Shown piece after piece: positions 16,673-34,307 of a DNA stretch of 64,000 nt. The DNA lies in NCBI GenBank assembly GCA_028281575.1, contig JANQJP010000030.1:67401-131400 (forward strand), in the 5' to 3' direction. Every line of letters starts with the position of its first letter. The stretch's first letter is position 1. The position numbers and the translations under genes were made by a program. A model generated the notes under the pieces. It did no database searches. It was not told the origin of the DNA and worked only from the letters and a program-made list of their open reading frames with translations. This DNA is from Cellvibrionaceae bacterium (GTDB lineage: Bacteria; Pseudomonadota; Gammaproteobacteria; Pseudomonadales; Cellvibrionaceae).

Positions 16673-16780
16673 AATAGAGGCTTAATCCTTTACCCGCCTA
16701 TCACATGCCTTGCTAGAAAAAGCAGCAAGGCAAAGTACCAGGCTCGCATTTTTTGCACATTCAATTCGGCTTGCATAGTA

Positions 16781-21481: not shown

Positions 21482-21939
21482 ATGTCACTGCCCAAAAGTT
21501 AATACGGTAGCTCCAGTTATCCACTTAATCTATTCTATTTTTCACAAGCATTTCGGTTAATTCGTAAGGGTATATAGTCTCTCTTCCTGGATATGAGCTT
21601 TTCACCCAAGGAGTAAAGCCGTACAGTTTTAAGAGGTTATTTCAGGTATTTTTATAGAATCAAAAAGTGATAATTTAATTATCGCTATAGTAACTATCGG
21701 TTTTATCTAGCTGACTATAAGGTTGATCAATACATGACTTCGTTGGTTTTAGAGGCACAGATTTTATGATTCCGTGCAGTGTTTTGAAAGTAATTCTATC
21801 GCAAGTTTCTTTAGAGGTAGGTATAAGATGTTGAGCCTGAACCTCATTGTTAAACGTACTTCGTGACGCCCAGGCCTGATCACCTTGCAAATCATCTAAT
21901 CTACCTCCTAAAGCAGTTCCATTCCCACTAACATTTACA

Positions 21940-22629
21940 CTATCCACAACTAATGACTCCTTGGCCAGGTTTTCTCGCAACTTCAGAATATGTTTGAATT
22001 CCAGAAACATTTTCACTTCGCAGCAGGGACAATAATTCTTCGTTAAAATAAACTATGTTTCTTTGTCCCCAAATTCGCCACAGCGGTATCTTCGCCAATT
22101 CATTTTTCAAAAAATCATTATTTTGAATTGCTGACAACATCTTTCTTTCCTTCGGACTTACATCGTAAGATTTTCTAGGAGCAAAAAAATTCTCATCGTA
22201 ATGGTCAAAGCTTAAGAATTTCCTAACGTTTAGGCGGAAGTACTGTTGCTCATTCAATACAGCACCTTTTTTATCTGTAAAGTCGCTCTCTACAAACTGA
22301 TGTTCAAAGCTATCAAGTTCCAGAATTATTTTTTTAACTTTCGACGAAACAGCAACAAACGAACCTGAAGTTCGCACATCAGGAAGATCCACCCCTTTCT
22401 TAAGGCTTATCATCGTATCGATTGAAGCCCATTTTTCATCAACGCAAGGCGCACGATAGACTTTCACATTATAATTTGAAAGGTCGGAATCTAATTCATC
22501 AAAACACCACTCAAACTCTTGAGGCGGAACATCATGACCCGCCATAACTCTAGGAGACCGCCCCACAGATTTGTGGAATTTAATTTTTGTGCCGCCATAA
22601 ACCGTTAAAAATCTATAAAATGTCGCCAT
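21940..22629 (-). CDS. Hypothetical protein (possible immunity-protein-like).
   Basis: 229-aa ORF in the AT-rich island with no known catalytic motif. Confidence 0.3.
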   Translation of the reverse strand: MATFYRFLTVYGGTKIKFHKSVGRSPRVMAGHDVPPQEFEWCFDELDSDLSNYNVKVYRAPCVDEKWASIDTMISLKKGVDLPDVRTSGSFVAVSSKVKKIILELDSFEHQFVESDFTDKKGAVLNEQQYFRLNVRKFLSFDHYDENFFAPRKSYDVSPKERKMLSAIQNNDFLKNELAKIPLWRIWGQRNIVYFNEELLSLLRSENVSGIQTYSEVARKPGQGVISCG

Positions 22630-22636
22630 AATGTAT

Positions 22637-22972
22637 TTATTCGTTGTTATGAGATAAACGTAGGAACGCAGGATAATTATTTGATGCCGTAATATTTTTT
22701 ACAGTAAATTTCGAACCATAATTTGTTGTAATATTCTCATTGTCTTTTAATGCAGCTCCACTACAAACGATATACGCAGCCGTATTAAAAGCGTGTTCCG
22801 AAATTTTCGCTGGTGTTAAATCACACGAAGAAACTTCAATCTCAAACCCCAAAAACGGCGCAATACCCTTTGTTACAACACCAACCTTTGAGTTATTTTC
22901 AGGCTGAAAAAAGTGAATACTGGCCCAATAAGTAACAGGCAGTTGAAACGCTGCGGTTGGGTCGTTATTCAA
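22637..22972 (-). CDS. Hypothetical protein.
   Basis: 111-aa ORF co-oriented with its neighbours. Confidence 0.25.
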   Translation of the reverse strand: MNNDPTAAFQLPVTYWASIHFFQPENNSKVGVVTKGIAPFLGFEIEVSSCDLTPAKISEHAFNTAAYIVCSGAALKDNENITTNYGSKFTVKNITASNNYPAFLRLSHNNE

Positions 22973-23324
22973 TAGGAACTAAGCTATTTCCCGAGTTGAC
23001 CTCAGATAAATCAAACGAATAAACTACCGCTCCAATCTGTACGGAATATTGAATATACCCACCTTCTCCTAAGGCACTGGACATATCACTAATTGTTTGA
23101 GATCTTGAAAAATTTATATCAGTCTCGATTGAACTTAACAGTGATTCATCAAAAACTCCACCATTATCAGCTATTAGTTGCTCAAGTGGATGAAAGTAAA
23201 TTGACTTAGTCCAATGGTAAGTAAGCTCTACATCAGGATGAAAAGGGCTAAACTCTCCAAAAGCTTCAATCTCATATTCCTCTCCAGCTCTAACAGTAAA
23301 GTCATTTGGTAGCTCAACAGACAC
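22965..23324 (-). CDS. Hypothetical protein.
   Basis: 119-aa ORF overlapping the start of the downstream ORF by 8 nt, suggesting an operon. Confidence 0.25.
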   Translation of the reverse strand: MSVELPNDFTVRAGEEYEIEAFGEFSPFHPDVELTYHWTKSIYFHPLEQLIADNGGVFDESLLSSIETDINFSRSQTISDMSSALGEGGYIQYSVQIGAVVYSFDLSEVNSGNSLVPIE

Positions 23325-23384
23325 CGAAATGCTTTCAGATCTTGCAATTTACTCTGACACCCACTGTACCACTTGCCCGCCCTT

Positions 23385-23470
23385 TCACCCCAGATTTTGA
23401 GGCTTCTAACATGGGTGTCTAGGTAAGCATCTACGAAGGCTTTGTACCATTAGATACCCACACGAATGCC
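23385..23470 (+). mobile_element. IS3-family transposase fragment (third remnant).
   Basis: gaggcttctaacatgggtgtct matches the remnant at 14190 in 20 of 21 nt, and is followed by a stop-interrupted transposase-like segment. Confidence 0.5.
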
Positions 23471-23822
23471 TTCCACCAGGCACGCTTTCTGGCGATAACC
23501 TTAGTACTACTTACAGCGTATAAAGAGTTAAAAACTGTTGGATGCTATGGAAACACTGAATTAAAAATGTCAATTTAGATAGAAAATGACACAAATTACA
23601 CGAGCGGAATACGTCCGCCTAAATCAGGGCTCCAGTTACTTGCGCCTGAACCAGGAGGAGCAAAAATCGCCATAGATCTGATCGCAGCAACGGTAGCTCT
23701 TGCGGCAAGAATTCCAACTATCGAAGTAGCCCTTAGAGCGCCACCAAGAGAAACAAAGTTCCCTTTATTGATTTATATAGACAACCTCTCCATACGCATC
23801 CACTAACTATCACACTTGGCTA

Positions 23823-23913
23823 AACTTCTCAAAAATCTAAAATATTGAGAAGATAGCTGTTAAACTTCTCAAATTTCGCTATTATTGAGAATTAAAGACC
23901 AAAACTTCTCAAA
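23823..23913 (+). promoter_or_regulatory. Repeated operator-like sites upstream of fic.
   Basis: Three direct copies of aacttctcaaa, two of them within cttctcaa-N12-ttgagaag palindromes, lie within 110 bp of the fic start. Confidence 0.45.
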
Positions 23914-23932
23914 AAACCGGGTATTTTGAAGC

Positions 23933-24991
23933 ATGAGCAGCGTCAAATTGAATAAATTACCACCAACTCAAGAACTGGAAACACCAGCTATTCTGAGAGC
24001 ACTGGTTGACGCACATAGGCACTTGGCTGAACTCAAAGGTGTCGCCAAAACTATCCCGAACGAAGGCATTTTAATATCGACGCTTTCACTTCAGGAAGCT
24101 CAAAGCAGCTCTGAAATTGAAAATATTATCACCACTCAAGATGCGCTTTATAAACAAGAGCTGCAGACGAGCGTATCTGATCCCGTGGCGAAAGAAGTTG
24201 CCTATTACGCTGCCGCATTACGATCAGGCTTCGACAAAGTGAAGCAACAAGACGCGCTTACTTTAAATACCATCATGGAAGTTCAGCAAACGCTTGAAGG
24301 AAACAGAGCAGGCTTCAGAAAAATACCCGGCACTGTGCTTAAAAATGACCGAACAGGCGAAGTTGTATTTGAACCTCCTTCACCCGAGTTAGTGCCTCAA
24401 TATATGTCAGACCTCGAGTCGTTTATTAACGCGGAGCAAAACCTCGACCCGTTAGTTTGCATGGCACTTATACATCATCAGTTTGAAACTATTCATCCTT
24501 TTTACGATGGCAATGGTCGCTCTGGCCGTATCGTTAATATCCTTTACTTACTGCTGAAAGGTCTCTTAGACACACCGATCCTATATTTGAGCCGGTACAT
24601 CAACCAAACCAAAGATGAGTACTACACAGAACTTCAAAACGTTCGTGACACAAATGAGTGGGAAGCTTGGCTTCTCTATATGCTTAGAGGTGTGAGCTCA
24701 ACAGCGATACACACCATCGATCTAGTTCAAAAGATCCAGAAGCTGTTACTCGAAATAAAGCAAGAAATCCGTGACAAACACAAATTTTACAGCCAAGACC
24801 TCATAAATAATTTATTTCGCCACCCATACACTAAAGTCGCTTTTCTAGAAAAAGACCTTGGCGTATCTCGTGCAACAGCCACTCGATACTTAGATGCTCT
24901 CTCAGATGATGGAACTCTCCAAAAGCATAAGCTCGGTAGAGAAAGCTTCTATATGAATCAAAGGCTCATCGGTGTGCTGTTTAATATGTAA
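23933..24991 (+). CDS. Fic/DOC family protein (class II, with internal inhibitory motif).
   Basis: Canonical HPFYDGNGRSGR (HPFx[D/E]GNGR). N-terminal SSEIEN matches the SxxxE[G/N] inhibitory helix. C-terminal winged-helix region. Confidence 0.85.
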   Translation: MSSVKLNKLPPTQELETPAILRALVDAHRHLAELKGVAKTIPNEGILISTLSLQEAQSSSEIENIITTQDALYKQELQTSVSDPVAKEVAYYAAALRSGFDKVKQQDALTLNTIMEVQQTLEGNRAGFRKIPGTVLKNDRTGEVVFEPPSPELVPQYMSDLESFINAEQNLDPLVCMALIHHQFETIHPFYDGNGRSGRIVNILYLLLKGLLDTPILYLSRYINQTKDEYYTELQNVRDTNEWEAWLLYMLRGVSSTAIHTIDLVQKIQKLLLEIKQEIRDKHKFYSQDLINNLFRHPYTKVAFLEKDLGVSRATATRYLDALSDDGTLQKHKLGRESFYMNQRLIGVLFNM

Positions 24992-25287
24992 GCACAAGAC
25001 TCCCAACAGGTATTTGAGATGCACGGATCTTTGAGCCTAACGGTACCTAATATAAGCCTCTCATAAGAAATCGCTTGACTTTAATACCTCGACTCATACA
25101 ATCCGCGCAAACTTAATTTGAGGTTGTAATGACTTTACTACGTTCGAAGCACGGCAGTTTTTATATCTGGACGCCCGGGATGATATGTAATCCACAGGAG
25201 GATCTCGCACGTCCACACGTTGCCTGCTAGACGAAGATTCTGGTAGGCAATACGCCTTCCAGCTTTAGTTTAAGTATTCAAACAATA

Positions 25288-25329
25288 AACCCGGAAGGCG
25301 AAATACGCTTTTCGGGTTTTTTTTCGCCT
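25288..25329 (+). terminator. Rho-independent terminator-like hairpin.
   Basis: aaacccg...cgggttt stem followed by a T8 run. Confidence 0.5.
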
Positions 25330-25354
25330 GAAGGAAATGAAAATTTAAAAATAT

Positions 25355-25429
25355 GGGCCGTTAGTTCAACGGTTAGAACCCTGGCCTCATAAGCCAGTTA
25401 CGAGAGTTCGACTCTCTCACGGCCCACCA
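25355..25429 (+). tRNA. tRNA-Met or Ile2 (anticodon CAT).
   Basis: Acceptor gggccgt/acggccc, anticodon arm ctggc-ctcataa-gccag, T-loop gttcgac, encoded CCA. Confidence 0.75.
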
Positions 25430-25789
25430 AATTTAGGAAATCAACAGGAAAAAGAGATTTATTTTAATTGAGGCTTAGAACATTTTTTTATAGATGAATA
25501 GTGTGATTTAACCGGTAGGGAAATTTTGAATTTTAATCAATTTTTCTCCGATGTCCCCTTCCCGAAATTTTGCCATATGCTGCAATAGGGAATTGCTCAC
25601 CCTAAAGAAAAATAACGCTATATAATATTCGGGAATACACCCAAAAAATCACCAAAAATTAAATTTGAAAAGAAAAAAAACAGCGCGTATCGTTTAAAAC
25701 AGATTCGCAACACGAACAAAAAACAGTAAGTAAAAAATTATGAAATTTAACTATCAGCAACATAGCAAGCATTTTTATTTATTGGGCTG

Positions 25790-25950
25790 GCCCACACCAT
25801 CCATAGATACAAATGTACTCCGTAGTGGGCTAGAACGTCCCTGCGTAACTTTTGGTGATAGCAAACTAATGTAAGCAGCTTTCGATAACGGAAGGCTGTG
25901 CCTTCCGGTGAATTAGAGAAACCCCGGTTGGCAACAATCGGGGTTTTTTT
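25790..25950 (+). ncRNA. Candidate small RNA with intrinsic terminator.
   Basis: Several stable hairpins (gcccac/gtgggc, ggaagg/ccttcc) end in ccccg-N-cgggg plus T7. No ORF. Confidence 0.3.
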
Positions 25951-26289
25951 ATGCCCACGGATGGGCGGTATAACGCAAGAGCCATGGATGGCGTTAGCGT
26001 ACGTTTTAGGAAGAACGAATTCGCGAAAGCTGGATGCTAAGTAGCGGAATTTTATGGAGTAGTACTCGCACGGATTGCGATTTTTGTTTCTAGCAATCGG
26101 AATTGCTAAACGCGCAATGGATGTGCGGAAACAATTTTATTTAGGTGTGATACCCACCGACACGGTATCGGTTTTTTAACAATGTGGTCGCTTTTTTTGG
26201 CAGGTAGCTGCTTTCCCCTTTTAATAAGGGCAAAGCCCTCGGCGTCTAACTGATTAGACATAGGTGCCTTTCCTATTCTGCCAACCAAT

Positions 26290-26364
26290 GTCCCTATGGT
26301 CTAGTGGTGAGGACTCCTGACTTTCTATCAGGCAGCGCCGGTTCGAGTCCGGCTAGGGATACCA
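26290..26364 (+). tRNA. tRNA-Glu (TTC).
   Basis: Anticodon arm cctga-ctttcta-tcagg, T-arm gccggttcgagtccggc, CCA. Confidence 0.7.
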
Positions 26365-26371
26365 AATTTTT

Positions 26372-26596
26372 GGGCATGCAGGCGAGAATGGAGAACCACT
26401 ACCAAAAACGATTAGGTTAAGGGTAGCCGGGTAAAACCGGAGGTTACTGAAATAAGCTATTACGCATGGTTGAGGATGCAGGCTCGATGCTCTACGGCGG
26501 GTGTCAGCTGGCGCGCGTTTTCCAAGTAATTAGCTTGGCTGAGAGTAATGCCTCAGTTGTTTCCTTTCGCGGGTTCGAATCCCGCCATGTCCACCA
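26372..26596 (+). ncRNA. Interrupted tRNA-like gene: canonical T-arm/acceptor/CCA with the cognate 5' acceptor strand 215 nt upstream.
   Basis: 3' end is gcgggttcgaatcccgc-catgtcc-a-cca. The only complementary 5' strand is gggcatg at 26372 (one G-U pair). About 150 nt of extra structured sequence lies between them. Confidence 0.4.
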
Positions 26597-26602
26597 ATTG
26601 TT

Positions 26603-26677
26603 ACGTCGATAGCTTAATGGAAAAGCGTTGGTCTCCAAAACCAGAAGATGTGGGTTCAAATCCTACTCGGTGTGCCA
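26603..26677 (+). tRNA. tRNA-Trp (CCA).
   Basis: Anticodon loop ctccaaa, T-arm gtgggttcaaatcctac, acceptor with two G-U pairs, CCA. Confidence 0.65.
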
Positions 26678-26728
26678 AATAAAAGCGGGATAGTGAAGCA
26701 GAAAGGAGGGGCTCCCGCAACCAAATTT

Positions 26729-26804
26729 GTAGAGATAGCTCAAATGGCGAGAGCGCCTGATTGAAGCCCAGGAGATCCCGGTTCAATTCCGGTTCTCTAC
26801 ACCA
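26729..26804 (+). tRNA. tRNA-Phe (GAA).
   Basis: Acceptor gtagaga/tctctac, anticodon loop ttgaagc (A31·C39 mismatch), CCA. Confidence 0.6.
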
Positions 26805-26810
26805 ATTTAC

Positions 26811-26886
26811 TGCTACATAGCTTAACTGGTAAAGCGCCCGGCTGTTAACCGGGAGGATGCAGGTTCGAAGCCAGCTGTAGCAGCCA
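26811..26886 (+). tRNA. tRNA-Asn (GTT).
   Basis: Anticodon arm cccgg-ctgttaa-ccggg, CCA. Confidence 0.7.
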
Positions 26887-26891
26887 AATTA

Positions 26892-26975
26892 GGGGAAGTA
26901 CCCAAGTGGCAAAGGGATCGCACTGTAAATGCGAAATATGTTGAGACGTAGGTTCGAGTCCTACCTTCCCCACCA
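26892..26975 (+). tRNA. tRNA-Tyr (GTA), class II.
   Basis: 84 nt. Anticodon arm tcgca-ctgtaaa-tgcga, long variable arm, T-arm gtaggttcgagtcctac, CCA. Confidence 0.75.
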
Positions 26976-26982
26976 AAAACCA

Positions 26983-27073
26983 GGAAGTGTGGCCGAGCGG
27001 TGAAGGCACCGGTTTGCTAAACCGGCAAGTGACGAAAGTTGCTTCAAGAGTTCGAATCTCTTCGCTTCCGCCA
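26983..27073 (+). tRNA. tRNA-Ser (GCT), class II.
   Basis: 91 nt. ggaagtgtggccgagcgg... is Ser-like. Anticodon arm ccggt-ttgctaa-accgg, CCA. Confidence 0.8.
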
Positions 27074-27085
27074 ATTTGATTACTT

Positions 27086-27175
27086 GGAAGGTGCGGTCCA
27101 TTGGCGGACAACCGGTCTTGAAAACCGGCGAGTTGTAGAGATACGGCTGGGGTTCAACTCCTCCACCTTCTTCCA
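27086..27175 (+). tRNA. tRNA-Ser (TGA), class II, with non-canonical D- and T-stems.
   Basis: Anticodon arm ccggt-cttgaaa-accgg is identical to E. coli Ser-TGA. Discriminator U, CCA. Confidence 0.55.
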
Positions 27176-27188
27176 ACTTTTTAATAAT

Positions 27189-27265
27189 GTGCCGGTGGTG
27201 GAACTGGAATACACAACAGGTTTAAGCCCTGTTCGCTGAGGGTTCGAGTCCCTCTCGGCACACCA
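27189..27265 (+). tRNA. tRNA-Leu-like (TAA) with short variable arm.
   Basis: Anticodon arm acagg-tttaagc-cctgt. 77 nt with a 5-nt variable loop, A73, CCA. Confidence 0.5.
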
Positions 27266-27270
27266 ATAAT

Positions 27271-27347
27271 GGCCAGCTGATGGAATTGGCATACATGCGT
27301 GCCTTAGAAGCACGATTTTCCGAGTTCGAATCTCGGGCTGGCTACCA
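27271..27347 (+). tRNA. tRNA-Leu-like (TAG) with short variable arm.
   Basis: Leu-type D-arm (tggaattggcatacatgcg), anticodon arm cgtgc-cttagaa-gcacg, 77 nt, A73, CCA. Confidence 0.5.
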
Positions 27348-27353
27348 ATTTAA

Positions 27354-27430
27354 GCAGGTGTGGCGCAATAGGCAGACGCGCTGGATTCAAATCCCAGATG
27401 TTGTGAGTTCGACTCTCACCACCTGCACCA
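27354..27430 (+). tRNA. tRNA-Leu-like (CAA) with short variable arm.
   Basis: D-arm gtggcgcaataggcagacgcg is nearly identical to the bacterial Leu D-arm. Anticodon loop ttcaaat, variable loop only 5 nt, A73, CCA. Confidence 0.55.
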
Positions 27431-27435
27431 AAACT

Positions 27436-27634
27436 CGTGGAGTAGTTTAATCGTTTGCAGTTTTTTGCTCCTGCAAAAACTGCATTTCCACCATCCTTGG
27501 TGGTCAATGCGATTTTCATAAAATTGGTGTTGGTGGTTCACAAATTTTTCAGGAAAAAATTTGGGCGTCTGTATAGACGGTTGCGAAGCAACTGACTACA
27601 TGGATGTAGTCATCAACCCCACCCTCCACGACCA
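27436..27634 (+). tRNA. tRNA(CAT)-like gene carrying a D-region insertion and a T-arm insertion (199 nt).
   Basis: Acceptor cgtggag/ctccacg + A + CCA. Anticodon arm cgatt-ttcataa-aattg. T-stem ggtgg/ccacc and T-loop ttcacaa are followed by a ~75-nt insert. A ~70-nt insert lies between the acceptor and the anticodon arm. Confidence 0.45.
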
Positions 27635-27643
27635 ATTAAAAAT

Positions 27644-27718
27644 AGCAGTGTGGTGTAACTGGCAACACACGTGACTTTGACTCACGTATTTCAGGTTCGA
27701 ATCCTGGCGCTGCTGCCA
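27644..27718 (+). tRNA. tRNA-Gln (TTG).
   Basis: Anticodon arm cgtga-ctttgac-tcacg, G73, CCA. Confidence 0.7.
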
Positions 27719-27730
27719 AATAAAAACTAT

Positions 27731-27881
27731 GCACGAGTGGCAGAGAGGGTATGCGCGGGATTGCAAACCCCGTATTACGCCGGTTAGACAAAATTGTAGG
27801 AACAATTTTGGGATGCGCTTTGCACAGGTTGCGAAGCAACTTAACACACGGATGTGTTAACCAATCCGGCCTCGTGCTCCA
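27731..27881 (+). tRNA. tRNA-Cys (GCA) with an ~80-nt insertion after the T-loop (151 nt).
   Basis: Acceptor gcacgag/ctcgtgc + U73 (Cys identity) + CCA. Anticodon loop ttgcaaa. T-stem gccgg/ccggc is split by the structured insert. Confidence 0.55.
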
Positions 27882-27886
27882 ATTTC

Positions 27887-27962
27887 GGGGGCCCATGTAC
27901 CAAGGGGGCGACGATGCTTTGCAAGCATTGTGTGGTCGGTTCGATTCCGACGGTCTCCACCA
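27887..27962 (+). tRNA. tRNA-Ala (TGC).
   Basis: G3·U70 identity pair is present. Anticodon loop tttgcaa, T-arm gtcggttcgattccgac, A73, CCA. The D-arm is non-canonical. Confidence 0.6.
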
Positions 27963-28419
27963 GAACTAAACCTTTTAGGTTTATTGGGTATGGCCAAGAT
28001 AGCACGGTGTAAATCGTGTAAAGGGGGGACGCCTGCGTAACTCCGCCAGAGCAATCTGGTCAATCCATGCAAGCCGAGCCTGCAGAGGCTTCATCACAAG
28101 ATGGAGATATCAGCAATGATGTAGAGCGTCTGAATGAGTTTAAGCACCTTTGAGTAAAAAACTTGGAGGAAATGCAAGCTCATAAATCAGCAAGTGGTGT
28201 TGGATCACGCTCAAACCAATACATTTACCTGAGACAGGCAAAGGGTAGCGCAAAGGTGCGATCCGCAAGAGAGTGCATTTGTGCAGTTGATAAGTGTCGG
28301 AAGAAAAACCGTCGCTTTGAAAACCGTTAAGTAAGCGGTAGCTGAAAGACATGTGGCGAGTGGCATTTTGTCGATCAAAAGTCGATAAAACCACAGGACG
28401 TGCTCGCTGCAGCAGGTTG

Positions 28420-28492
28420 TTGAAATTAGCTCAACTGGTAGAGCAATTGACTCGTAATCAATAGGCTGCTGGTTCAATCCCAGCATTTCAAA
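28420..28492 (+). tRNA. tRNA-Thr (CGT).
   Basis: Acceptor ttgaaat/atttcaa (all A/T), D-arm tagctcaactggtagagc, anticodon arm attga-ctcgtaa-tcaat. No encoded CCA. Confidence 0.65.
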
Positions 28493-28846
28493 CCCAAACA
28501 GAAAAATGCAAAGACACGTCCGGTGTTTTGTGAAAATGGCTTAATGCCTTGCTACGCAAGTAGAACAAGGCTGATTAACCGGCCGCAAGCTGGAAGATCA
28601 TCTGTCACAACGTGCACGTTGGTCGCAAACCTTTAGAGCTCGCAAGGCTCGCGGTAACGAAAGGGCAGAAAAACAAAACACGACAAGTGAATCGCCACAC
28701 TTTTAAAAAAAGGCAGCCATGTCGAATTACATCCTTGTCCCCTGCGGGAAATGATGTGGATACGAAATTAACTTGTGGTCGCAAGCCACAAGGTAAGGTT
28801 TCAAAAGGTTCGACGCAAACGCTGTAGTCTCAAGCGTTTAATTTTC

Positions 28847-28925
28847 GGTTCGTTAGCTTAGCCTGATTTAAAGCACTCGGTAGTCAGCCGAGGGATCACG
28901 GGTTTAAATCCCGTACGAACCGCCA
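28847..28925 (+). tRNA. tRNA-Asp (GTC).
   Basis: Acceptor ggttcgt/acgaacc, anticodon arm ctcgg-tagtcag-ccgag (A33 is unusual), G73, CCA. Confidence 0.6.
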
Positions 28926-28926
28926 A

Positions 28927-29000
28927 GCGGCATTGACCGAATGGCGAGGTACCTGCCTTCCAAGCAGAGGAACAGGGTTCGATTCCCTGATGCCGCTCCA
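28927..29000 (+). tRNA. tRNA-Gly (TCC).
   Basis: Acceptor gcggcat/atgccgc, anticodon loop cttccaa, U73, CCA. Confidence 0.7.
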
Positions 29001-29031
29001 ATTTATTTTTCATCTATTAAAAATTTTCTTT

Positions 29032-29109
29032 CCGGGTTTAGCTCAGTTTGCGAAGAGCGCTTGCTTTGGGAGCAAGAGGCCCTAGGTTCGAATCCTAGTA
29101 CCCGGACCA
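29032..29109 (+). tRNA. tRNA-Pro (TGG).
   Basis: D-arm tagctcagtt..., anticodon arm cttgc-tttggga-gcaag, A73, CCA. Confidence 0.7.
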
Positions 29110-29116
29110 AATTAAT

Positions 29117-29330
29117 GGACGTGTAGCTCAATGCCCTCGGGTGCAACTGGGTGGCAAATTTTTGCTCCTGCAAAGTTTTCATTTCCGCCATCCATGGCGG
29201 TCAGCACCTGTTTTACACACAGGATACGGTGGTTCACAACTTTGCAGGAGTAAGAGTTGGACGCCCAAACGGGCGGTCGCGAAGCGATTATTTACAGGGA
29301 TGTAAATAACAATTCCATTCACGTCTACCA
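29117..29330 (+). tRNA. tRNA-Val(TAC)-like gene with D-region and T-arm insertions (214 nt).
   Basis: Acceptor ggacgtg/cacgtct + A + CCA. Anticodon arm cctgt-tttacac-acagg. T-loop ttcacaa is followed by a ~75-nt insert. A D-region insert shares ttttgctcctgcaaa and a covarying hairpin with the gene at 27436. Confidence 0.45.
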
Positions 29331-29349
29331 CTTCAAATTTTAAAAAAAT

Positions 29350-29502
29350 GCTCACGTCGCTTAACGGCAAAGCACTTCCCTTGTAAGGAAGATGATGACG
29401 GTTCAAATAATTTGACAGGATCAAATTAAGGCGTCCTTTAGGGCGGTTACGAAGTAACTGTTTTACATGGATGTAAAACATCAATCCAGTCCGTGAGCTC
29501 CA
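29350..29502 (+). tRNA. tRNA-Thr(TGT)-like with an ~80-nt insertion after the T-loop (153 nt).
   Basis: Acceptor gctcacg/cgtgagc + U + CCA. D-stem gctt/aagc. Anticodon arm cttcc-cttgtaa-ggaag. T-loop ttcaaat, then the insert. Confidence 0.5.
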
Positions 29503-29506
29503 ATTT

Positions 29507-29582
29507 GCTCGATTAGTTTAATTGAAGAAAACGCTGGCGTGCGAAGCCGGTAATGCAGGTTTGAATCCTGCATCGAGCGCCA
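29507..29582 (+). tRNA. tRNA-Arg (GCG; unusual anticodon).
   Basis: Acceptor gctcgat/atcgagc, anticodon arm ctggc-gtgcgaa-gccgg, G73, CCA. Confidence 0.55.
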
Positions 29583-29594
29583 ATTTATTTTTTT

Positions 29595-29669
29595 CCGCTC
29601 GTGGCGTAATGGTAGCGCATCGGCCTTTTAAGCCGACAGGTGTAGGTTCAAGTCCTACCGGGCGGACCA
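29595..29669 (+). tRNA. tRNA-Lys (TTT).
   Basis: Anticodon arm tcggc-cttttaa-gccga, A73, CCA. Confidence 0.75.
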
Positions 29670-29676
29670 ATTCTTT

Positions 29677-29752
29677 GCTCCCGTAGCTCAATGAATAGAG
29701 CACTTGTCTTCGAAACAAGTTGATGCTGGTTTGAATCCAGCCGGGAGTGCCA
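29677..29752 (+). tRNA. tRNA-Arg (TCG).
   Basis: D-arm tagctcaatgaatagagc, anticodon arm cttgt-cttcgaa-acaag, G73, CCA. Confidence 0.65.
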
Positions 29753-29776
29753 ATTAACGATAAGAGAATACTTAGG

Positions 29777-29849
29777 GGTGGCTATAGCATAGTGCCAATG
29801 CCCCTGGTTGTGATCCAGGTTGACATGGGTTCGAATCCCATTAGTCACC
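29777..29849 (+). tRNA. tRNA-His (GTG) with G-1:C73, embedded in a 13-bp inverted-repeat extension.
   Basis: Extra 5' G pairs with C73 (His identity). Anticodon arm cctgg-ttgtgat-ccagg. Flanks gagaatacttagg / cctaagtattctc are perfect inverted repeats. No CCA. Confidence 0.7.
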
Positions 29850-29886
29850 CCTAAGTATTCTCAATTACTCAATCAAGGAGAGCATC

Positions 29887-30180
29887 ATGCGCATAGCACT
29901 AAGTAAACGCGAGTGTTATCACGCAGATATTTATTGCAGTGATAGCAACTCCGCGAAAAAAATACTAAGAGAAAATCCGATTTCCATATTAGCCGTGGAT
30001 TTTTATTTGTATGGCCGTGAAAACGGTACTCATGTCTTAGCATGGGCTAGGACAAAAAAACTACTTCCACATTATGTAGTGGTAACAGAAAGCGACCGCA
30101 ATAAACGTGTTCTATTAGCTGAAGAGCTCACGAAAGGAGGTTACAACTCTGCTGATGGAACAACATTTATAAAACATTAA
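29887..30180 (+). CDS. Hypothetical small protein inside the tRNA array.
   Basis: Strong SD (aaggaga) 8 nt upstream of ATG. 97 aa. Fold unknown; weak resemblance to receiver-like domains. Confidence 0.45.
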   Translation: MRIALSKRECYHADIYCSDSNSAKKILRENPISILAVDFYLYGRENGTHVLAWARTKKLLPHYVVVTESDRNKRVLLAEELTKGGYNSADGTTFIKH

Positions 30181-30181
30181 T

Positions 30182-30258
30182 GTCCTCGTGGCTCAACTGG
30201 AGAGCGCAACGGATTTCTACTCCGTAGGTTGTGGGTTCGAATCCTACCGGGGACGCCA
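30182..30258 (+). tRNA. tRNA-Arg (TCT).
   Basis: D-arm tggctcaactggagagc, anticodon arm acgga-tttctac-tccgt, G73, CCA. Confidence 0.65.
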
Positions 30259-30284
30259 GTATAGCAACCAGTAGGAGCAACGAG

Positions 30285-30842
30285 ATGGGCAGAGTATTGC
30301 GCTTAGATATTTCCGGAACGCCAACTTCTTGGCTTTCGCGGAAAGAAGCGGCCGTTTTATATGTTAAAAATTTAGTGCAGTGGGAACTTGGAGATAAAAG
30401 TTTAGTTATCTTCGGAGGAACAAACCGATTAACCGGAAAACAATCTTCGTTGGAAATCAGCCCAGTTATTGCAACTCGAGGTGATACTCATCGAAGAAAA
30501 TTGGTTTCCGGATTTAATAATCGAATGCTATTCCGTCGAGACAATTATCACTGCATGTACTGTGGTGGAAAATTTAGTCACGTAGAATTGACACGAGATC
30601 ACGTAGTACCGCGTGCACAAGGAGGATTAGATATTTGGGAAAATGTTGTGGCAGCCTGTGGAAGGTGCAATCACTTTAAAGCGGACCGCACACCTGAACA
30701 AGCGGGTATGAAGTTATTAGCCATACCTTTTAGACCAAATATATTTGAATCCATGTACTTAGCACAACACAAAGTACTAGCAGATCAAATGGAATACTTG
30801 GAAAAACAATTTTCAGGTAAAAGAACTTGGAAAGCGGCGTAA
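30285..30842 (+). CDS. HNH endonuclease.
   Basis: DHVVPRAQGG...WENVVAACGRCNHFK HNH/ββα-Me motif with a Cys zinc knuckle (CMYCGG). SD aggag upstream of the ATG at 30285. The longer ORF annotated from 30231 would overlap the tRNA. Confidence 0.8.
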   Translation: MGRVLRLDISGTPTSWLSRKEAAVLYVKNLVQWELGDKSLVIFGGTNRLTGKQSSLEISPVIATRGDTHRRKLVSGFNNRMLFRRDNYHCMYCGGKFSHVELTRDHVVPRAQGGLDIWENVVAACGRCNHFKADRTPEQAGMKLLAIPFRPNIFESMYLAQHKVLADQMEYLEKQFSGKRTWKAA

Positions 30843-30975
30843 ATTACTTACGTCGTATTCCATACAGAAGTTTATATCTTCGCCGAGAGTTAGCGGAACT
30901 GGTTCTGTACGCCAGTCTGGCACAAGCGTTGTTAACGTGCTGTGTACCAATTCGAAAGCGGGAATAAATTGGATG

Positions 30976-31052
30976 GTTTTTGTAGCTCATTCGGGTAGAG
31001 CAATAGACTCATAATCTATCGGTAGCGGGTTCGATTCCCGTCAAAAACACCA
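30976..31052 (+). tRNA. tRNA-Met or Ile2 (CAT), second copy.
   Basis: Acceptor gtttttg/caaaaac, D-arm tagctcattcgggtagagc, anticodon arm ataga-ctcataa-tctat, A73, CCA. Confidence 0.65.
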
Positions 31053-31421
31053 CGTCGTCTCCAAAACGACTCTATGGGAAGGCCGAGAGGCTTGAGGTTC
31101 GAGTCCTCACAAGACTTTCACTCTTGTTTAAAATCTACGAGAGGTCCATGATCTTGAATTGGGTAGGTCAGTAGCGAAAGCCATTGGCTGATCACAATTC
31201 AGGGTGCCGACAATATAGCCGGGTTAGATGGGTCGAATTGGCACGATGACATTCTATGAATGTGATGCGTTTATACACCACCTCAATATAAAAGGATGAT
31301 TGTTGGGTGAGTGATAAATAAATCCACTCCTCTAGAATGAACTCCTGCCGATTCCAAATGTGATCCCCCTGTATTCGAGGGTGGGCCTCGCCATTAATTT
31401 TTTAAGGCAAAAGGAAATACG

Positions 31422-32579
31422 ATGTTCTTTTTAAAAACAGTTGATATTGCCGATAACGAACGAGCGTTGCTCTTTGATCGAGATCGGCTACAAAAAGTAC
31501 TTGGCCCAGGGCGACACCGCTTGTCTACTTTTGGGCGAAAGTTAACAGTAGAAAAGTTTGACATTACTTCAGTGCGCTTTGAGCACCCAAAGCTCAAGTT
31601 TTTGGTGCGTCAGTACCAAGCGCTTCTTGAAGACTATGTAGATGTGTTTGAGCTAAATGATAGTGAGGTCGGTGTTATCTACCGCGATCAAAAAATCTCG
31701 GATATTCTACCTCCAAGTAATTTATTGGTTACTTGGAAAGGTGCTGAGGACGTTCGAGTAGATATCGTCGATATCACTAAAAACTATGAAATCAAAGATG
31801 AACTAGTTGCACTTTTAGGTCGAGGCGTAAAAATCGGTACAAGCCGACAAGTTGTGAATGCCATTAGCTATGCAGAGGTACCAGATGAACATGTGGGGCT
31901 TCTACAAGTTAACGGTAAGTTAGAGCGTGTACTTGAGACCGGCGCTTACGCCTTCTGGAAATACAACCGGTCAATTGTAGTAAAGCTGCTTGATTTACGT
32001 GTACAGACCATTGATGTAAGCGGCCAAGAAATCTTGACTAAAGATCGTGTGAGCTTGCGTATTAACTTGTCAGCGAGCTACAACATTGTCGATCCAGAAA
32101 GCGTTGCACTAAAACTGAAAGATTACGCGAACTTTCTGTACTTAGAGCTTCAATTGCGATTGCGAGAAGCCGTGGGCACAAAACTATTAGATGAATTACT
32201 TGAAGATAAGGATGCCCTCAACTCAGTGATCGCGAATGGCGTTAGTGAGAAACTAGCCGAGTTTGGTATAAAGTTGCGAAGTGTGGGTGTAAAAGACATT
32301 ATTCTACCCGGTGATATGAAAGTGATCCTAAATCAAGTTGTCGAAGCTCAAAAAGAAGCCGAAGCTAACGTGATTAAACGACGAGAAGAAACTCAAGCAA
32401 TGCGATCACTACATAACACCGCAAAAGTAATGGAAAACAACCCAGTGCTATTGCGATTGAAGGAGCTTGAAGCGCTAGAACGAATCACTGCAAAAATCGA
32501 TAAGATTTCTGTATATGGTGGTTTAGATAGTGTACTCAATGACATGGTCAAACTAGCTCCTTCCAAACCGGCTCAATAA
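31422..32579 (+). CDS. SPFH/band-7 (stomatin/prohibitin/flotillin/HflK-C-like) domain protein.
   Basis: Central SPFH-like region followed by a long coiled-coil Ala/Glu-rich segment. SD aaggaaa upstream. Confidence 0.75.
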   Translation: MFFLKTVDIADNERALLFDRDRLQKVLGPGRHRLSTFGRKLTVEKFDITSVRFEHPKLKFLVRQYQALLEDYVDVFELNDSEVGVIYRDQKISDILPPSNLLVTWKGAEDVRVDIVDITKNYEIKDELVALLGRGVKIGTSRQVVNAISYAEVPDEHVGLLQVNGKLERVLETGAYAFWKYNRSIVVKLLDLRVQTIDVSGQEILTKDRVSLRINLSASYNIVDPESVALKLKDYANFLYLELQLRLREAVGTKLLDELLEDKDALNSVIANGVSEKLAEFGIKLRSVGVKDIILPGDMKVILNQVVEAQKEAEANVIKRREETQAMRSLHNTAKVMENNPVLLRLKELEALERITAKIDKISVYGGLDSVLNDMVKLAPSKPAQ

Positions 32580-32785
32580 CACCTCCCACTCGTAAGAGTG
32601 GGAGTTTTGAGGAAAGAACAATTAAGACAATTACTTTGTATCGGCCAACAGGCCCGGAAGAGCTAAAACTCGTAGAGGAAAGTGGTTTTAAAAAGTGGCC
32701 TCCTCGGTTACCCGAACAGCCAATTTTTTATCCCGTAACAACCAGTGCTTACGCGGAGAAAATCGCAAGGGACTGGAACGTTAAG

Positions 32786-34033
<1,248 letters not shown>

Positions 34034-34307
34034 AACTAACTGGACGCTTATAACCAGATTCTCTGGGTGAAGCATCGAAGACGTGACATTTTGTTAATGA
34101 TACTGTCTGCGTAGCTCCGTTTTACGGGAAAGGGTTGCATGTCAAAGTAGCAAATACACACGTTTGATATGCCTGCTGGGAGTGGGGGAGCGCAGCATTA
34201 TGATGTGACAAGGCCTGAATCCCTTTACTGCCAATGCCATTTCACAATGGCCATTGTATCAGGAGGGATTCAGGCTTTTTTATGTCAGTTATGTTTTATC
34301 TGTTTTG

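Follow-up and report, generated by a model that had tools for sequence, protein, structure and literature searches.

The window, by which we mean the whole 64-kb stretch of DNA analysed here, holds a dense tRNA array that we read as an accessory, horizontally spread backup tRNA operon of the L-array type, gated by a ribosome-sensing attenuator whose leader peptide contains every amino acid. Judging from the sequence, we give this reading a probability of roughly 0.6. The 33-codon leader would probably switch the cluster on when translation stalls, and the attenuator that gates the array would probably report a shortage of any tRNA. We infer that the array's tRNAs are spares, supernumerary to the genome's own set.

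Composition of the tRNA array

ARAGORN, applied to the full 64 kb, predicted valid cloverleafs for 23 canonical tRNA genes, all on the plus strand and all within positions 25355-31052, and found no tRNA gene in the rest of the 64 kb; 21 of the 23 were above the gathering score in Rfam. Five genes missed by the predictor, namely four interrupted tRNAs and one 225-nt tRNA-Ala/tmRNA-like RNA, bring the total to 28, bearing out the initial annotation, which had described a dense plus-strand array of about 28 tRNA and tRNA-like genes. The promoter, leader, RNA and protein-coding features placed by coordinates below are likewise on the plus strand. An encoded CCA terminates 26 of the 28 genes and is followed by A and then A or T in 21 of these 26. 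The regular CCA-AAT(T) spacers described earlier are a real pattern, and the AU-rich RNase E-type trailer of a tight tRNA operon has the same look. Two other traits that had been noted did not hold up: the acceptor stems are not G-U-rich, with 0-2 G-U pairs each, and the "non-canonical D-arms" are actually discrete inserts.

The array begins with tRNA(CAU) number 1 (25355-25429), directly 3' of the attenuator, and continues with tRNA-Glu(UUC) (26290-26364), tRNA-Trp(CCA) (26603-26677), eight intact tRNAs for Phe, Asn, Tyr, Ser(GCU), Ser(UGA), Leu(UAA), Leu(UAG) and Leu(CAA) (26729-27430), tRNA-Gln(UUG) (27644-27718), tRNA-Asp, tRNA-Gly and tRNA-Pro (28847-29109), and tRNA-Arg(GCG), Lys, Arg(UCG) and His (29507-29851; His without an encoded CCA), all from ARAGORN and Rfam. 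ARAGORN also called tRNA-Ala(UGC) (27888-27962), tRNA-Arg(UCU) (30182-30258), which sits between a 97-aa ORF and an HNH gene, and the final gene of the array, a tRNA(CAU) (30976-31052) whose position after the HNH gene is kept in related loci L004, L006, L007, L095 and L097.

The array further contains a cREC-like ORF, the HNH gene, a GOLLD RNA of about 870 nt and two decayed tRNAs. One of the latter, a tRNA-Ile(GAU)-like gene (26198-26287), retains its acceptor stem and is changed in its D-loop and anticodon arm by comparison with L004, L097 and L095; the other is an internally deleted CAU tRNA remnant (26685-26723) whose intact counterpart lies at 6556-6629 of L004. The initial annotation had overlooked these two genes, the GOLLD RNA and the leader with its attenuator. 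Intact tRNA genes serve 17 amino acids. Because the only source in the array of Cys, Val and probably Ile (CAU) is an interrupted gene, and because tRNA-Ile(GAU) is decayed, the window's copy may no longer form a complete working tRNA set.

A leader peptide with all amino acids and a putative attenuator

The best promoter-like site across 24900-31500 is sigma-70-like (25075-25102; TTGACT, 16 nt, TACAAT; 10 of 12 consensus matches), and its position is kept in the leader alignment. The strongest terminator of the region lies just before the first tRNA. Together they bracket leader ORF 1 (25129-25230; 33 codons), which has a GAGG Shine-Dalgarno 5 nt upstream and encodes the peptide MTLLRSKHGSFYIWTPGMICNPQEDLARPHVAC, in which all 20 amino acids are present. 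Homologous leader ORFs of 29-41 codons were found in eleven loci; frame, length and stop position are retained, and the peptides drift in sequence, with more non-synonymous than synonymous changes in most comparisons. Of these leaders, which are homologous and so not independent samples, five contain the full 20 amino acids, three contain 19 and three (L006, L097 and L103) contain 16-18. Random 33-mers contain a mean of 15.4 amino acids, and the probability of 20 is 1e-4 to 5e-3 per leader; given a complete ancestor, L098 and L005 would have stayed complete with probabilities of 0.008 and 0.005, respectively. The 30-residue leader peptide of L007 is nearly unrelated in sequence, yet it too contains all 20. 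Completeness has been upheld across divergent lineages in a way that needs ongoing selection. Such an all-amino-acid leader appears to be undescribed.

Complementarity and RNAalifold delimit a putative attenuator of five segments (25220-25324): A (25220-25232), formed by the end of the leader ORF and its stop codon, B (25239-25250), C (25252-25262), D (25290-25300), and E with a U8 run (25306-25324). Two states are mutually exclusive, A:B with C:D and B:C with D:E, the latter being the terminator. Each of the four pairings is standard-paired in 90-96% of cells, against 27-66% with a slid partner, and B:C with D:E was independently predicted by RNAalifold; segments B to E hardly vary, which leaves covariation unable to prove the alternative pairings. 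When a ribosome footprint was masked, equilibrium folding reproduced the switch only in part: the terminator always forms in the full transcript and, in transcripts ending before segment E, C:D is usually still favoured with a ribosome at the stop codon, so that a kinetic argument is needed for the model.

In the proposed mechanism, transcription would start from the promoter at 25075 and meet a ribosome-mediated attenuator. During translation at normal speed, a ribosome at the leader stop codon would cover segment A, leaving B:C and D:E to form and the terminator to halt transcription ahead of the first tRNA. A ribosome delayed at any codon, whether by a missing, cleaved or uncharged tRNA or by inhibited elongation, would leave A free to pair with B; C would then capture D, and RNA polymerase would continue into the tRNAs, the GOLLD RNA and the repair-type genes. 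With every amino acid represented in the leader, the switch would sense a failing tRNA of any species. A candidate second leader (25740-25950) follows, with a 44-codon ORF (25740-25874) containing 19 of the 20 amino acids (Ala is absent), a CGGAAGGC/GCCTTCCG hairpin (25889-25907), a terminator (25919-25950) and a weak His_leader match (31.7 bits). As the first tRNA is separated from the remaining array by this second ORF, its terminator and a promoter-like site, the transcription unit may have more than one promoter and one attenuator.

The array could instead be a silent, decaying relic, out of use and kept off by the terminator, so that miniature mobile elements and deletions accumulate, its leader completeness a leftover. 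Damage in the window fits this (four genes interrupted, one internally deleted and one degenerate), as do the fused and degenerate genes of L095 and an IS3 element that has cut the region directly after the Band_7 gene. We consider it unlikely, as the exons of the interrupted genes retain all stems, identity with L004 is 90-100% over the array, the 225-nt RNA and the GOLLD region, and the completeness of the leader is upheld in divergent lineages.

Interrupted tRNA genes

The four predictor-missed tRNAs (CAU, Cys, Val and Thr(UGU)) each have a 7-bp acceptor stem, a discriminator base and CCA, and in each the T-loop carries a four-hairpin insert of 73-78 nt; two also have a D-loop insert. tRNA(CAU), for Ile2 or Met (27436-27634), has inserts in the D-loop (27454-27505) and T-loop (27539-27613), and its counterpart is uninterrupted in L004 and L097. 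In tRNA-Cys(GCA) (27731-27881; discriminator U73) and tRNA-Thr(UGU) (29350-29502) the T-loop is interrupted (27786-27861 and 29404-29481, respectively), and both genes are uninterrupted in L004, L097, L101 and L007. tRNA-Val(UAC) (29117-29330) occurs in three allelic states: no insert (L097, L101), a D-loop insert only (L004), and both a D-loop insert (29134-29202) and a T-loop insert (29235-29309) in the window. At L004, the 98%-related locus, the window's interrupted genes are otherwise uninterrupted, and tRNA-Ser(UGA) is interrupted instead, by a four-hairpin copy in its anticodon loop. L095 has a T-loop insert in its ortholog of tRNA(CAU) number 1, and L095 and L096 have a D-loop insert in tRNA-Arg(UCU).

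Two insert families can be distinguished: four-hairpin elements (eight copies, of which six are in T-loops and one each in an anticodon loop and a D-loop) and two-hairpin elements in D-loops (six copies); a single further insert occupies a variable arm. The interrupted genes are ordinary array tRNAs colonised by small structured elements, most likely miniature mobile elements. tRNA loop inserts of this kind appear not to have been described before.

We also weighed the possibility that the inserts are a new kind of bacterial tRNA intron, excised from the D-, anticodon-, variable- and T-loops of the transcript, with the exons rejoined by the linked RNA-repair enzymes (cREC, together with RtcB or an RNA ligase). 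All inserts seen sit in tRNA loops, with stems and spacers free of them, and their removal gives normal 7-nt loops matching the uninterrupted alleles; for the anticodon-loop copy in tRNA-Ser(UGA) of L004, removal would be required for decoding. All eight four-hairpin copies are in sense orientation, and strong covariation together with G-U pairing in their hairpins identifies the sense strand as the one that folds. The D-loop and T-loop inserts are mutually complementary, those of tRNA-Val over 21 contiguous bases (shuffled mean 8.6, maximum 13), and the module is linked to RNA-repair genes. However, unrelated metagenome contigs carry the four-hairpin element between genes, beside terminators and at times as tandem copies, and a weak intergenic copy lies at 61431-61504 of the window; REP- or MITE-like repeats behave in this way. 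By eye, the insert junctions show no bulge-helix-bulge motif or group I features, and the inserts matched no Rfam intron or ribozyme family. The left flanks read TTCA, TCGA, TTGA or ATGA, with no target duplication or terminal inverted repeat seen by eye at the junctions, as would fit single-strand "peel and paste" insertion. With no splicing endonuclease known from bacteria either, we regard RNA-level introns as doubtful.

GOLLD, other noncoding RNAs and protein genes

A GOLLD RNA of about 870 nt (27963-28836) was identified from Rfam RF02032, its fold and identity with L004. Its 3' domain (28351-28836) matches the full RF02032 model at 199.3 bits (gathering score 150), and the presumed 5' domain (27963-28350) has a fold z of -4.5 and about 97% identity with L004. 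tRNA-Thr(CGU) (28420-28494; ARAGORN and Rfam), without an encoded CCA, lies inside the GOLLD linker, where L004 has tRNA-Gln(CUG). The 225-nt tRNA-Ala/tmRNA-like RNA (26372-26596) has a 7-bp acceptor stem with G3:U70, a T arm and ACCA. The L004 copy is the same throughout (100% identity), L097 and L101 conserve the RNA, and no tag reading frame was found in it. Comparison with L004, L097 and L007 also revealed a conserved noncoding element of about 106 nt (30869-30973), which in those loci ends in a 7-bp terminal helix and ACCA; this end is mutated in the window.

The embedded HNH gene noted initially was confirmed at 30285-30842 (185 aa; PF14279 at 2e-14, PF01844); its family has 1426 homologs, mostly of about 185 aa and mainly from marine Gammaproteobacteria. 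Embedded small ORFs had also been claimed. The 97-aa ORF (29887-30180) stood, with a weak match to cREC_REC (PF20274; 20.7 bits, under the 27-bit cut-off), a predicted 2',3'-cyclic-phosphate phosphoesterase domain; in L004, L005, L095, L098, L101 and L103 the corresponding position is taken by an ORF of 96-102 aa. Another ORF, 28163-28330, is contained in the 5' domain of GOLLD and is probably noncoding. Downstream, a 385-aa SPFH/Band_7 protein (31422-32579) is a conserved neighbour, followed in L004 by two RlaP nucleotidyltransferase genes. Repair-type neighbours across the loci comprise cREC, RlaP, RtcR/RtcB/RtcA, RNA ligase and RtcB.

The array sits in a lower-GC stretch of about 24 kb flanked by two amylase genes. 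Its flanks are as first described, with SoFic, an AbiEii toxin and an integrase fragment on the left and, on the right, an IS3 element (about 32789-34037) with perfect terminal inverted repeats; there is no integrase directly beside the array in the window. The SoFic and AbiEii defence genes, together with the large serine recombinase and conflict-system genes that adjoin the array of L101, could point to a prophage or phage-derived tRNA and GOLLD island that serves phage codon usage or evades tRNA-cleaving defences, with the leader as the element's regulatory region. GOLLD has been described from phages and prophages, close to tRNA islands (PMC12286853), and phage tRNA clusters commonly hold HNH genes (PMC6582537). 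Against this origin, which we find quite unlikely, no phage structural or replication genes occur within 10 kb in any locus, relatives of the HNH protein are absent from 2.9 million viral contigs, and in the phage collection the array and GOLLD region had only generic matches at the tRNA level and the leader had none.

Related loci

Loci with the same leader and HNH gene hold very different numbers of tRNAs: 0 in L102, 1 in L006, 3 in L005, 20 in L007, 25 in L101 and 27 in L004. The flanking genes differ in each locus. These features and the GOLLD and HNH hallmarks support the earlier suggestion of a horizontally mobile array rather than a housekeeping operon, as do the serine recombinase beside the L101 array, the conjugative-plasmid array of Methylibium petroleiphilum PM1 described below and the lower-GC stretch around the window's array. 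If the cell instead drew its tRNAs mainly from this array, the ORF and terminator upstream of it would be incidental. Proteobacterial tRNA operons normally have encoded CCA ends, close spacing and AU-rich trailers, the tRNA gene order is syntenic among the window, L004, L097, L007 and L101, and the L004 array is located near the rpoD-dnaG-rpsU operon. That reading is nevertheless very improbable given loci with only 0-3 tRNAs, the variable flanks, the strong terminator immediately before the first tRNA, the deletions and insertions tolerated in several genes of the window and L095, and the joining of an internal GOLLD with HNH and repair-type genes, as in accessory arrays.

Under the preferred reading, a backup operon under attenuator control, a single accessory transcription unit would constitute a near-complete second set of tRNA genes. 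The module would travel with the GOLLD RNA, cREC-like phosphoesterase, HNH nuclease and Band_7 protein and, in relatives, additionally with RlaP, RtcB/RtcA or RNA ligase.

Comparison with known arrays

A precedent is the L-array of Anabaena: otherwise silent, it is switched on by translation inhibitors and helps survival, and HNH and RtcB genes are linked to it (PMC8421152). On the conjugative plasmid of Methylibium petroleiphilum PM1, a 27-tRNA array is followed by an HNH protein 43% identical to that of the window. The window's array is large and dense enough to count as a tRNA array unit, defined in the literature as 20 or more genes at 2 or more per kb (PMC4758250). The combination of array, GOLLD and HNH is already known: in the arrays that have spread horizontally among mycobacteria and cyanobacteria, the hallmarks are a GOLLD RNA with a tRNA inside it and an HNH gene (PMC6582537; PMC8421152), and the window's array bears both.

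A dense tRNA array containing a GOLLD RNA

We ran ARAGORN across the whole 64 kb and found 23 tRNA genes between 25355 and 31052 and none elsewhere in the window; all 23 lie on the plus strand, as the initial annotation had proposed, and 21 scored above the Rfam gathering score. Four gaps in the ARAGORN list are filled by plus-strand genes, each combining a normal anticodon arm with a perfect 7-bp acceptor stem, its discriminator base and CCA: a tRNA(CAU) (27436–27634), a tRNA-Cys(GCA) with discriminator U73 (27731–27881), a tRNA-Val(UAC) (29117–29330) and a tRNA-Thr(UGU) (29350–29502). The specificities absent from the intact genes are exactly those of these four. The genes previously called “tRNA-like” are interrupted tRNA genes, and the gaps are not spacers.

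An encoded CCA terminates 26 of the 28 tRNA-type genes, and the next bases are A followed by A or T in 21 of these 26, so the regular CCA-AAT(T) spacing noted earlier is real. In tightly packed tRNA operons, AU-rich trailers after CCA are normal sites of processing. Acceptor stems had also been described as G-U rich, which they are not, since each contains only 0–2 G-U pairs. The embedded protein-coding genes were found where expected, as an HNH nuclease ORF (30285–30842) and a small ORF of 97 amino acids (29887–30180). With 23 intact and four interrupted tRNA genes in 5.7 kb (4.0–4.7 per kb), the locus qualifies as a tRNA array unit under the definition of Tran et al. 2015 (PMC4758250), which asks for 20 or more tRNA genes and a density no lower than 2 per kb.

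The array also carries a GOLLD RNA that had been missed: a full-length Rfam match to RF02032 at 28351–28836 (199.3 bits against a gathering score of 150, model positions 1–416). We aligned the window with L004, an ENA metagenome contig that has the same array and an HNH protein 98% identical to that of the window, and whose GOLLD ortholog scores 198.1 bits. The 388 nt upstream of the match (27963–28350) have a folding z-score of −4.5 against shuffled sequences and approximately 97% identity to L004, and we therefore take 27963–28836 as one GOLLD RNA of approximately 870 nt. Another small ORF (28163–28330) falls inside this 5′ part and is probably non-coding. In the solved GOLLD structure, a 5′ domain (1–420) and a 3′ domain (421–833) are accompanied by a disordered linker (497–538) that can carry tRNAs (PMC12286853). 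A tRNA-Thr(CGU) lies inside the window's match at the linker position and scores as a full tRNA (70.8 bits). The linker tRNA is this Thr(CGU) at 28420–28494 in the window and Gln(CUG) at 8286–8361 in L004; between two loci with 98% identical HNH proteins, the linker tRNA thus differs within conserved surrounding GOLLD sequence. It is almost certain that the array and its GOLLD RNA are present as described here.

Other RNA-like elements occur in and beside the array. A 225-nt RNA on the plus strand (26372–26596) combines a tRNA-Ala-like acceptor (GGGCAUG/CAUGUCC, with G3:U70), a T arm (GCGGG-UUCGAAU-CCCGC) and a terminal ACCA, as in the tRNA-Ala-like domain of tmRNA; L004 has an identical copy, and the related loci L097 and L101 conserve it. 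We rejected its assignment as a tmRNA because ARAGORN made no tmRNA call, the Rfam tmRNA score was 25.3 bits against a threshold of 47, and the conserved core showed neither three-base periodicity nor a plausible tag frame. Nearby on the same strand are a degenerate tRNA-Ile(GAU) (26198–26287) and an internally deleted CAU tRNA (26685–26723). A noncoding element of approximately 106 nt (30869–30973) separates the HNH stop codon from the last tRNA and is highly conserved in L004, L097 and a further related locus, L007. In these three loci it ends in a 7-bp terminal helix followed by ACCA, an end that is mutated in the window; possibly the element is a further RNA that is tRNA-like or processed. 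The approximately 370 noncoding nucleotides at 31053–31421, upstream of an SPFH/Band_7 gene (31422–32579), are conserved in the same three loci with differences that preserve hairpins, and they include the T-arm-like GAGGTTCGAGTCCTC. Candidate identities for this stretch are a structured 5′ UTR, an additional RNA and a tRNA remnant.

A leader ORF conserved in amino-acid repertoire

Upstream of the first tRNA, the best promoter-like site of the region (25075–25102, 10 of 12 matches) and its strongest terminator (25287–25324, a 14-bp stem with a U run) bracket a 33-codon ORF (25129–25230) with a GAGG Shine-Dalgarno sequence. A short leader ORF, with predicted translation, between a promoter and an intrinsic terminator is the layout of an attenuator. 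The predicted peptide, MTLLRSKHGSFYIWTPGMICNPQEDLARPHVAC, contains all 20 amino acids.

Using nhmmer and blastn, we found a homologous leader upstream of the HNH module in the related loci L004, L095, L097, L098/L099, L005, L006, L007, L101, L102 and L103. The ORF is present in all 11 loci at 29–41 codons; its frame is kept, and the stop codon always falls within one and the same RNA segment. Most pairwise comparisons of leaders show more non-synonymous than synonymous changes, and the peptides of L007 and L101 are almost unrelated in sequence to that of the window. All 20 kinds of amino acid occur in five of the leaders, 19 in three, 18 in two and 16 in one. Random peptides of the same length, drawn at the window's amino-acid frequencies, have a mean of 14.7–16.5 kinds, and the probability of reaching 20 is 1 × 10−4 to 5 × 10−3 per leader. 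When we randomised only those positions of the window peptide that differ, completeness was kept with P = 0.008 in the comparison with L098 and P = 0.005 with L005. Searching for clustered regulatory codons, we found no codon runs in these leaders, which instead spread 16–20 different amino acids over 29–41 codons and in this respect depart from the known attenuators. Frame, length and repertoire are conserved while sequence is not, and this is the pattern expected of an ORF read for its codons, not for its peptide. No match to the leader was found in the phages or plasmids searched, and a full-text literature search of incomplete coverage returned no description of an all-amino-acid leader.

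A second conserved ORF, of 44 codons, occupies 25740–25950 together with a downstream CGGAAGGC/GCCTTCCG hairpin and terminator, between the first tRNA and the remaining array; in L006 it stands directly before the HNH gene. It uses 19 of the 20 amino acids (always without Ala) and is possibly a second gate.

A candidate ribosome-mediated attenuator

Five segments at the 3′ end of the leader could form a chain of alternative helices. Segment A (25220–25232) comprises the last codons and the stop codon, and is followed by B (25239–25250), C (25252–25262), D (25290–25300) and E (25306–25324), after which comes the U run. The possible pairings are A:B, B:C, C:D and D:E, the last being the terminator. 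Each of the four helices is 90–96% paired across the 11 sequences, against 27–66% when the partner is slid, with almost no covariation; because segments B–E are nearly invariant, covariation is unable to decide among the pairings. RNAalifold, run independently, predicted B:C together with D:E.

We propose that a ribosome reaching the stop codon would cover A, leaving B:C and D:E to form and transcription to stop. If the ribosome were delayed anywhere upstream, A would be free to take B, C would then take D, and the polymerase would read through. Leader and terminator together thus predict induction under impaired translation and silence otherwise. Equilibrium folding with a masked ribosome footprint, for the full leader or for a leader cut before E, did not cleanly reproduce this switch, so the model rests on co-transcriptional order, as in classical attenuators. 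An attenuator of some kind is probable at this site, and the chances that its logic is that of an all-tRNA sensor are evenly balanced.

Our most far-reaching interpretation, which we hold at a probability of about 0.5, is that the array and its HNH/cREC module, even where the module is tRNA-less, are under a new ribosome-mediated attenuator whose leader is selected for containing all 20 amino acids and not for its sequence. It would act as a general sensor of any failing tRNA and switch on a spare tRNA set. A second and less likely layer is that the small four-hairpin and two-hairpin elements in D-, anticodon, variable and T-loops of the tRNAs intervene at the RNA level and are substrates of the linked RNA-repair enzymes.

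Empty and filled alleles of interrupted tRNA genes

The alignment of the window with L004 revealed natural pairs of empty and filled sites. The L004 genes for CAU, Cys and Thr(UGU) are ordinary 76-nt tRNAs; each of their window counterparts carries a T-loop insert of 73–78 nt at or beside position 55/56, and the window CAU and Val genes have an extra D-loop insert of 52–69 nt. Three states exist for tRNA-Val, which is insert-free in L097 and L101, has only the D-loop insert in L004 and has both inserts in the window. The polymorphism is bidirectional between the window and L004: tRNA-Ser(UGA) is intact in the window, and its L004 copy holds a D-loop insert, a 73-nt post-anticodon insert and a variable-arm insert. 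An insert in the anticodon loop is incompatible with decoding, and the L004 Ser(UGA) gene is either spliced or dead. L095 has inserts in the T-loop of its first CAU tRNA, in the D-loop and T-loop of Arg(UCG) and in the D-loop of Arg(UCU). Every insert observed is located in a loop, with none in stems or spacers.

The T-loop insert is a module of four hairpins, H0, P1, P2 (often YRC-GAA-GYR) and P3 (loop NGGA). Six copies went into a covariance model, which then found 26 matches at E values up to 1, a few of them marginal. In the alignment of these 26, which is fitted to the model, pairing holds in 95% of cells, both sides have changed in 23 of the 25 pairs, and none of 500 shuffles was as good. 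Frequent G-U pairs indicate that the sense strand is the folding strand, and all eight tRNA-borne copies are in sense orientation. The D-loop insert belongs to a second family, with two hairpins and UCCU-type loops, which among the sequences compared was found only in tRNA D-loops. In sequence, these loops complement those of hairpins H0 and P3 in the four-hairpin element; between the two Val inserts, 21 contiguous bases are complementary, against a mean of 8.6 and a maximum of 13 in shuffled sequences. We rejected the idea that the D-loop insert is an inverted T-loop element, as its hairpins are complementary to H0 and P3 in the wrong order for an inversion. That the inserts are elbow extensions retained in the tRNA appears unlikely.

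Four-hairpin copies also occur between genes, beside terminators and sometimes in tandem, in unrelated metagenome contigs, which makes the module a member of a dispersed repeat family. In the metagenome contigs L087–L094 it makes up strings of hairpins between genes, beside terminators and a tRNA-Leu(CAG) gene. The window itself has a weak intergenic copy (20.6 bits) at 61431–61504, between two minus-strand ORFs, which shares with the element its CACA start and an identical CUACAUGGAUGUAG hairpin. Two viral-contig matches to the DNA pattern of hairpins P2 and P3 came without tRNA or Rfam content and were taken as chance.

We give roughly even odds to a miniature mobile element inserting where loops are exposed and single-stranded. 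The left flanks read TTCA, TCGA, TTGA or ATGA, and inspection by eye showed neither a target duplication nor a terminal inverted repeat, in few copies whose junctions are ambiguous by 1–2 nt. Miniature repeats of the REP/BIME type and those derived from IS200/IS605 are small, hairpin-rich and strand-specific, and they lie after genes and beside terminators; like the inserts, they have no terminal inverted repeats or target duplications. One insert hairpin contains a GCGAAGC motif, a known and very stable DNA mini-hairpin. Insertion into tRNA loops together with a complementary D-loop partner has, to our knowledge, not been described for REP/IS200-type repeats.

The other possibility is that the inserts are true RNA-level intervening sequences, cut out by the linked repair enzymes, which we regard as less likely even than elbow extensions. 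We know of no splicing endonuclease in bacteria. A group I intron would have a catalytic core of more than 200 nt in the anticodon loop; the inserts are 47–78 nt long and mostly in T- and D-loops, and no Rfam intron family matched at E values up to 1. Neither bulge-helix-bulge nor group I signatures were found by eye at the junctions, and no description of loop inserts in bacterial tRNA genes was found in a full-text literature search of incomplete coverage. The non-canonical tRNA introns of archaea and red algae (e.g. PMC3241643 and PMC9602550) resemble the inserts in being short intervening sequences at several loop positions, allele-variable and up to three per gene. Those introns have bulge-helix-bulge motifs in D-, anticodon and T-arms, whereas we recognised none by eye in the inserts, and the four-hairpin element also occurs outside tRNA genes.

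The module recurs in different genomic surroundings

In the related loci, the module runs in the order leader, 0–27 tRNAs, a small ORF at the cREC-like position, tRNA-Arg, HNH, tRNA(CAU) and usually Band_7, and it recurs in different genomic surroundings. L004 lies near an rpoD operon and has two RlaP genes downstream, L006 has one tRNA only and RtcR/RtcB/RtcA immediately upstream, and L005 (Zooshikella) has an RNA ligase immediately after HNH. RtcB lies approximately 7 kb downstream in L103 (Halioxenophilus), L102 (Thalassocella) consists of leader and HNH with no tRNAs, and in L101 a clean array of 25 tRNAs adjoins a large serine recombinase. cREC is a predicted 2′,3′-cyclic-phosphate phosphoesterase linked to RNA ligase (PMC7824862), and RlaP is a nucleotidyltransferase associated with RNA ligase (PMC12776372). 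The window's array contains HNH and the cREC-like ORF, with RNA-repair genes in its relatives, and RtcB is absent from within it.

A conjugative plasmid of Methylibium petroleiphilum PM1 carries a 43%-identical HNH directly after a 27-tRNA array, with HD, AlkB and NADAR genes among or near the tRNAs. A 60-codon ORF with 19 kinds of amino acid and a terminator precede that array (megaplasmid NC_008826, 3600–9552), which hints that leader-type control may extend to Betaproteobacteria. The HNH protein had no relative in viral contigs, and BLAST of the array and GOLLD region against a phage collection returned generic tRNA similarity only. A genome scan with the HNH alignment usefully contributed L007; the matches listed are distant homologs (at most 57% identity), almost none with an array or detectable leader. 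The crude scan upstream of these distant homologs for a leader-like ORF and terminator was insensitive, missing even the window's own terminator. We considered and dropped a role for the first tRNA(CAU) as a chromosomal integration target, because it lies in the conserved module, after the attenuator, in all array-bearing loci.

The flanks of the array are as the initial annotation described them, an AT-rich island with Fic on the left and an IS3 element on the right. The island (9770–24991) is of lower GC (0.38–0.44) and holds defence and conflict genes: an AbiEii toxin (14447–15358), an integrase fragment (16781–17368), Imm11-like and DUF4261 ORFs (21940–22972) and SoFic (23933–24991; PADLOC, 390 bits). 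To the right, the IS3-family element (approximately 32789–34037), with perfect terminal inverted repeats of approximately 40 bp, interrupts an ORF (32636–32791) just after Band_7; in L004 two RlaP genes come next to Band_7 on that side, and the window has neither. The whole stretch from 9.7 to 34 kb is bounded by a pullulanase/amylase gene and an alpha-amylase gene, which island and array together separate. Behind the same module stand between 0 and 27 tRNAs; its flanks differ from locus to locus, and recombinase and conjugative-plasmid contexts occur. The array is very probably accessory, and its earlier interpretation as horizontally mobile is supported.

Comparison with known systems

The combination of array, GOLLD and HNH is already known from mycobacteria (PMC6582537). 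The Mycobacterium arrays of Behra et al. 2019 (PMC6582537) and Morgado et al. 2020 (PMC7549688) likewise have approximately 30 tRNA genes, a GOLLD with an internal tRNA or pseudo-tRNA and an HNH gene, and are interpreted as horizontally acquired. Their hosts are Actinobacteria, whereas the window comes from marine Gammaproteobacteria, and neither a leader or attenuator nor loop inserts are reported for them. Compared with those arrays, the linker tRNA of the window's GOLLD is a full tRNA that differs between two 98%-related loci. The locus places GOLLD inside a predicted translation-stress operon, with a cargo tRNA that differs between near-identical loci. Beyond the initial annotation, the locus carries the GOLLD RNA, polymorphic structured tRNA-loop inserts and a probable ribosome-sensing attenuator that samples 20 amino acids. 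Because empty and filled alleles exist naturally, the loop inserts lend themselves to clean tests of whether bacteria can process tRNA intervening sequences, whether tRNAs can tolerate large elbow extensions and how miniature elements target folded genes.

Classical attenuators (trp, his, leu, thr, ilv and pheA) share with the window a promoter, a short ORF with a Shine-Dalgarno sequence, overlapping hairpins, an intrinsic terminator and genes directly downstream, and we found weak matches to the Rfam His_leader (27 and 32 bits). Their leaders contain runs of one or a few regulatory codons and control amino-acid biosynthesis, whereas the window's leader has approximately one codon for each of the 20 amino acids and would control tRNA genes. 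Given its five-segment chain, the predicted ribosome-free state is read-through, unlike the classical case. If true, an all-20-amino-acid attenuator would be a simple, testable sensor linking tRNA damage or depletion, possibly from anticodon nucleases, toxins, starvation or antibiotics, directly to replacement tRNAs and repair enzymes, and would extend the attenuation principle from “one amino acid, one pathway” to “any tRNA.”

By analogy, the nearest parallel in function is the trn operon of Anabaena sp. PCC 7120, a cyanobacterial L-array (Santamaria-Gomez et al. 2021, PMC8421152) and the only array for which a stress-induced spare tRNA set has been demonstrated. Each has over 20 tRNA genes in a long array on a single strand, supernumerary and horizontally spread in Anabaena and presumably so here, and both are linked to HNH and RtcB-type RNA-repair genes, the HNH likeness being one of gene type. 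The HNH gene is upstream of the array in most cyanobacteria and at the 3′ end in the window, and GOLLD, present in the window's array, is unmentioned for cyanobacterial L-arrays in PMC8421152. Control in Anabaena involves 9-nt direct repeats over the −10 box and transcription start (PMC8421152), whereas the conserved control element of the window is a leader ORF and terminator. In Anabaena the array stays silent until translation inhibitors induce it, and it aids survival (PMC8421152), and this pattern of silence and induction is what the window's leader would predict.
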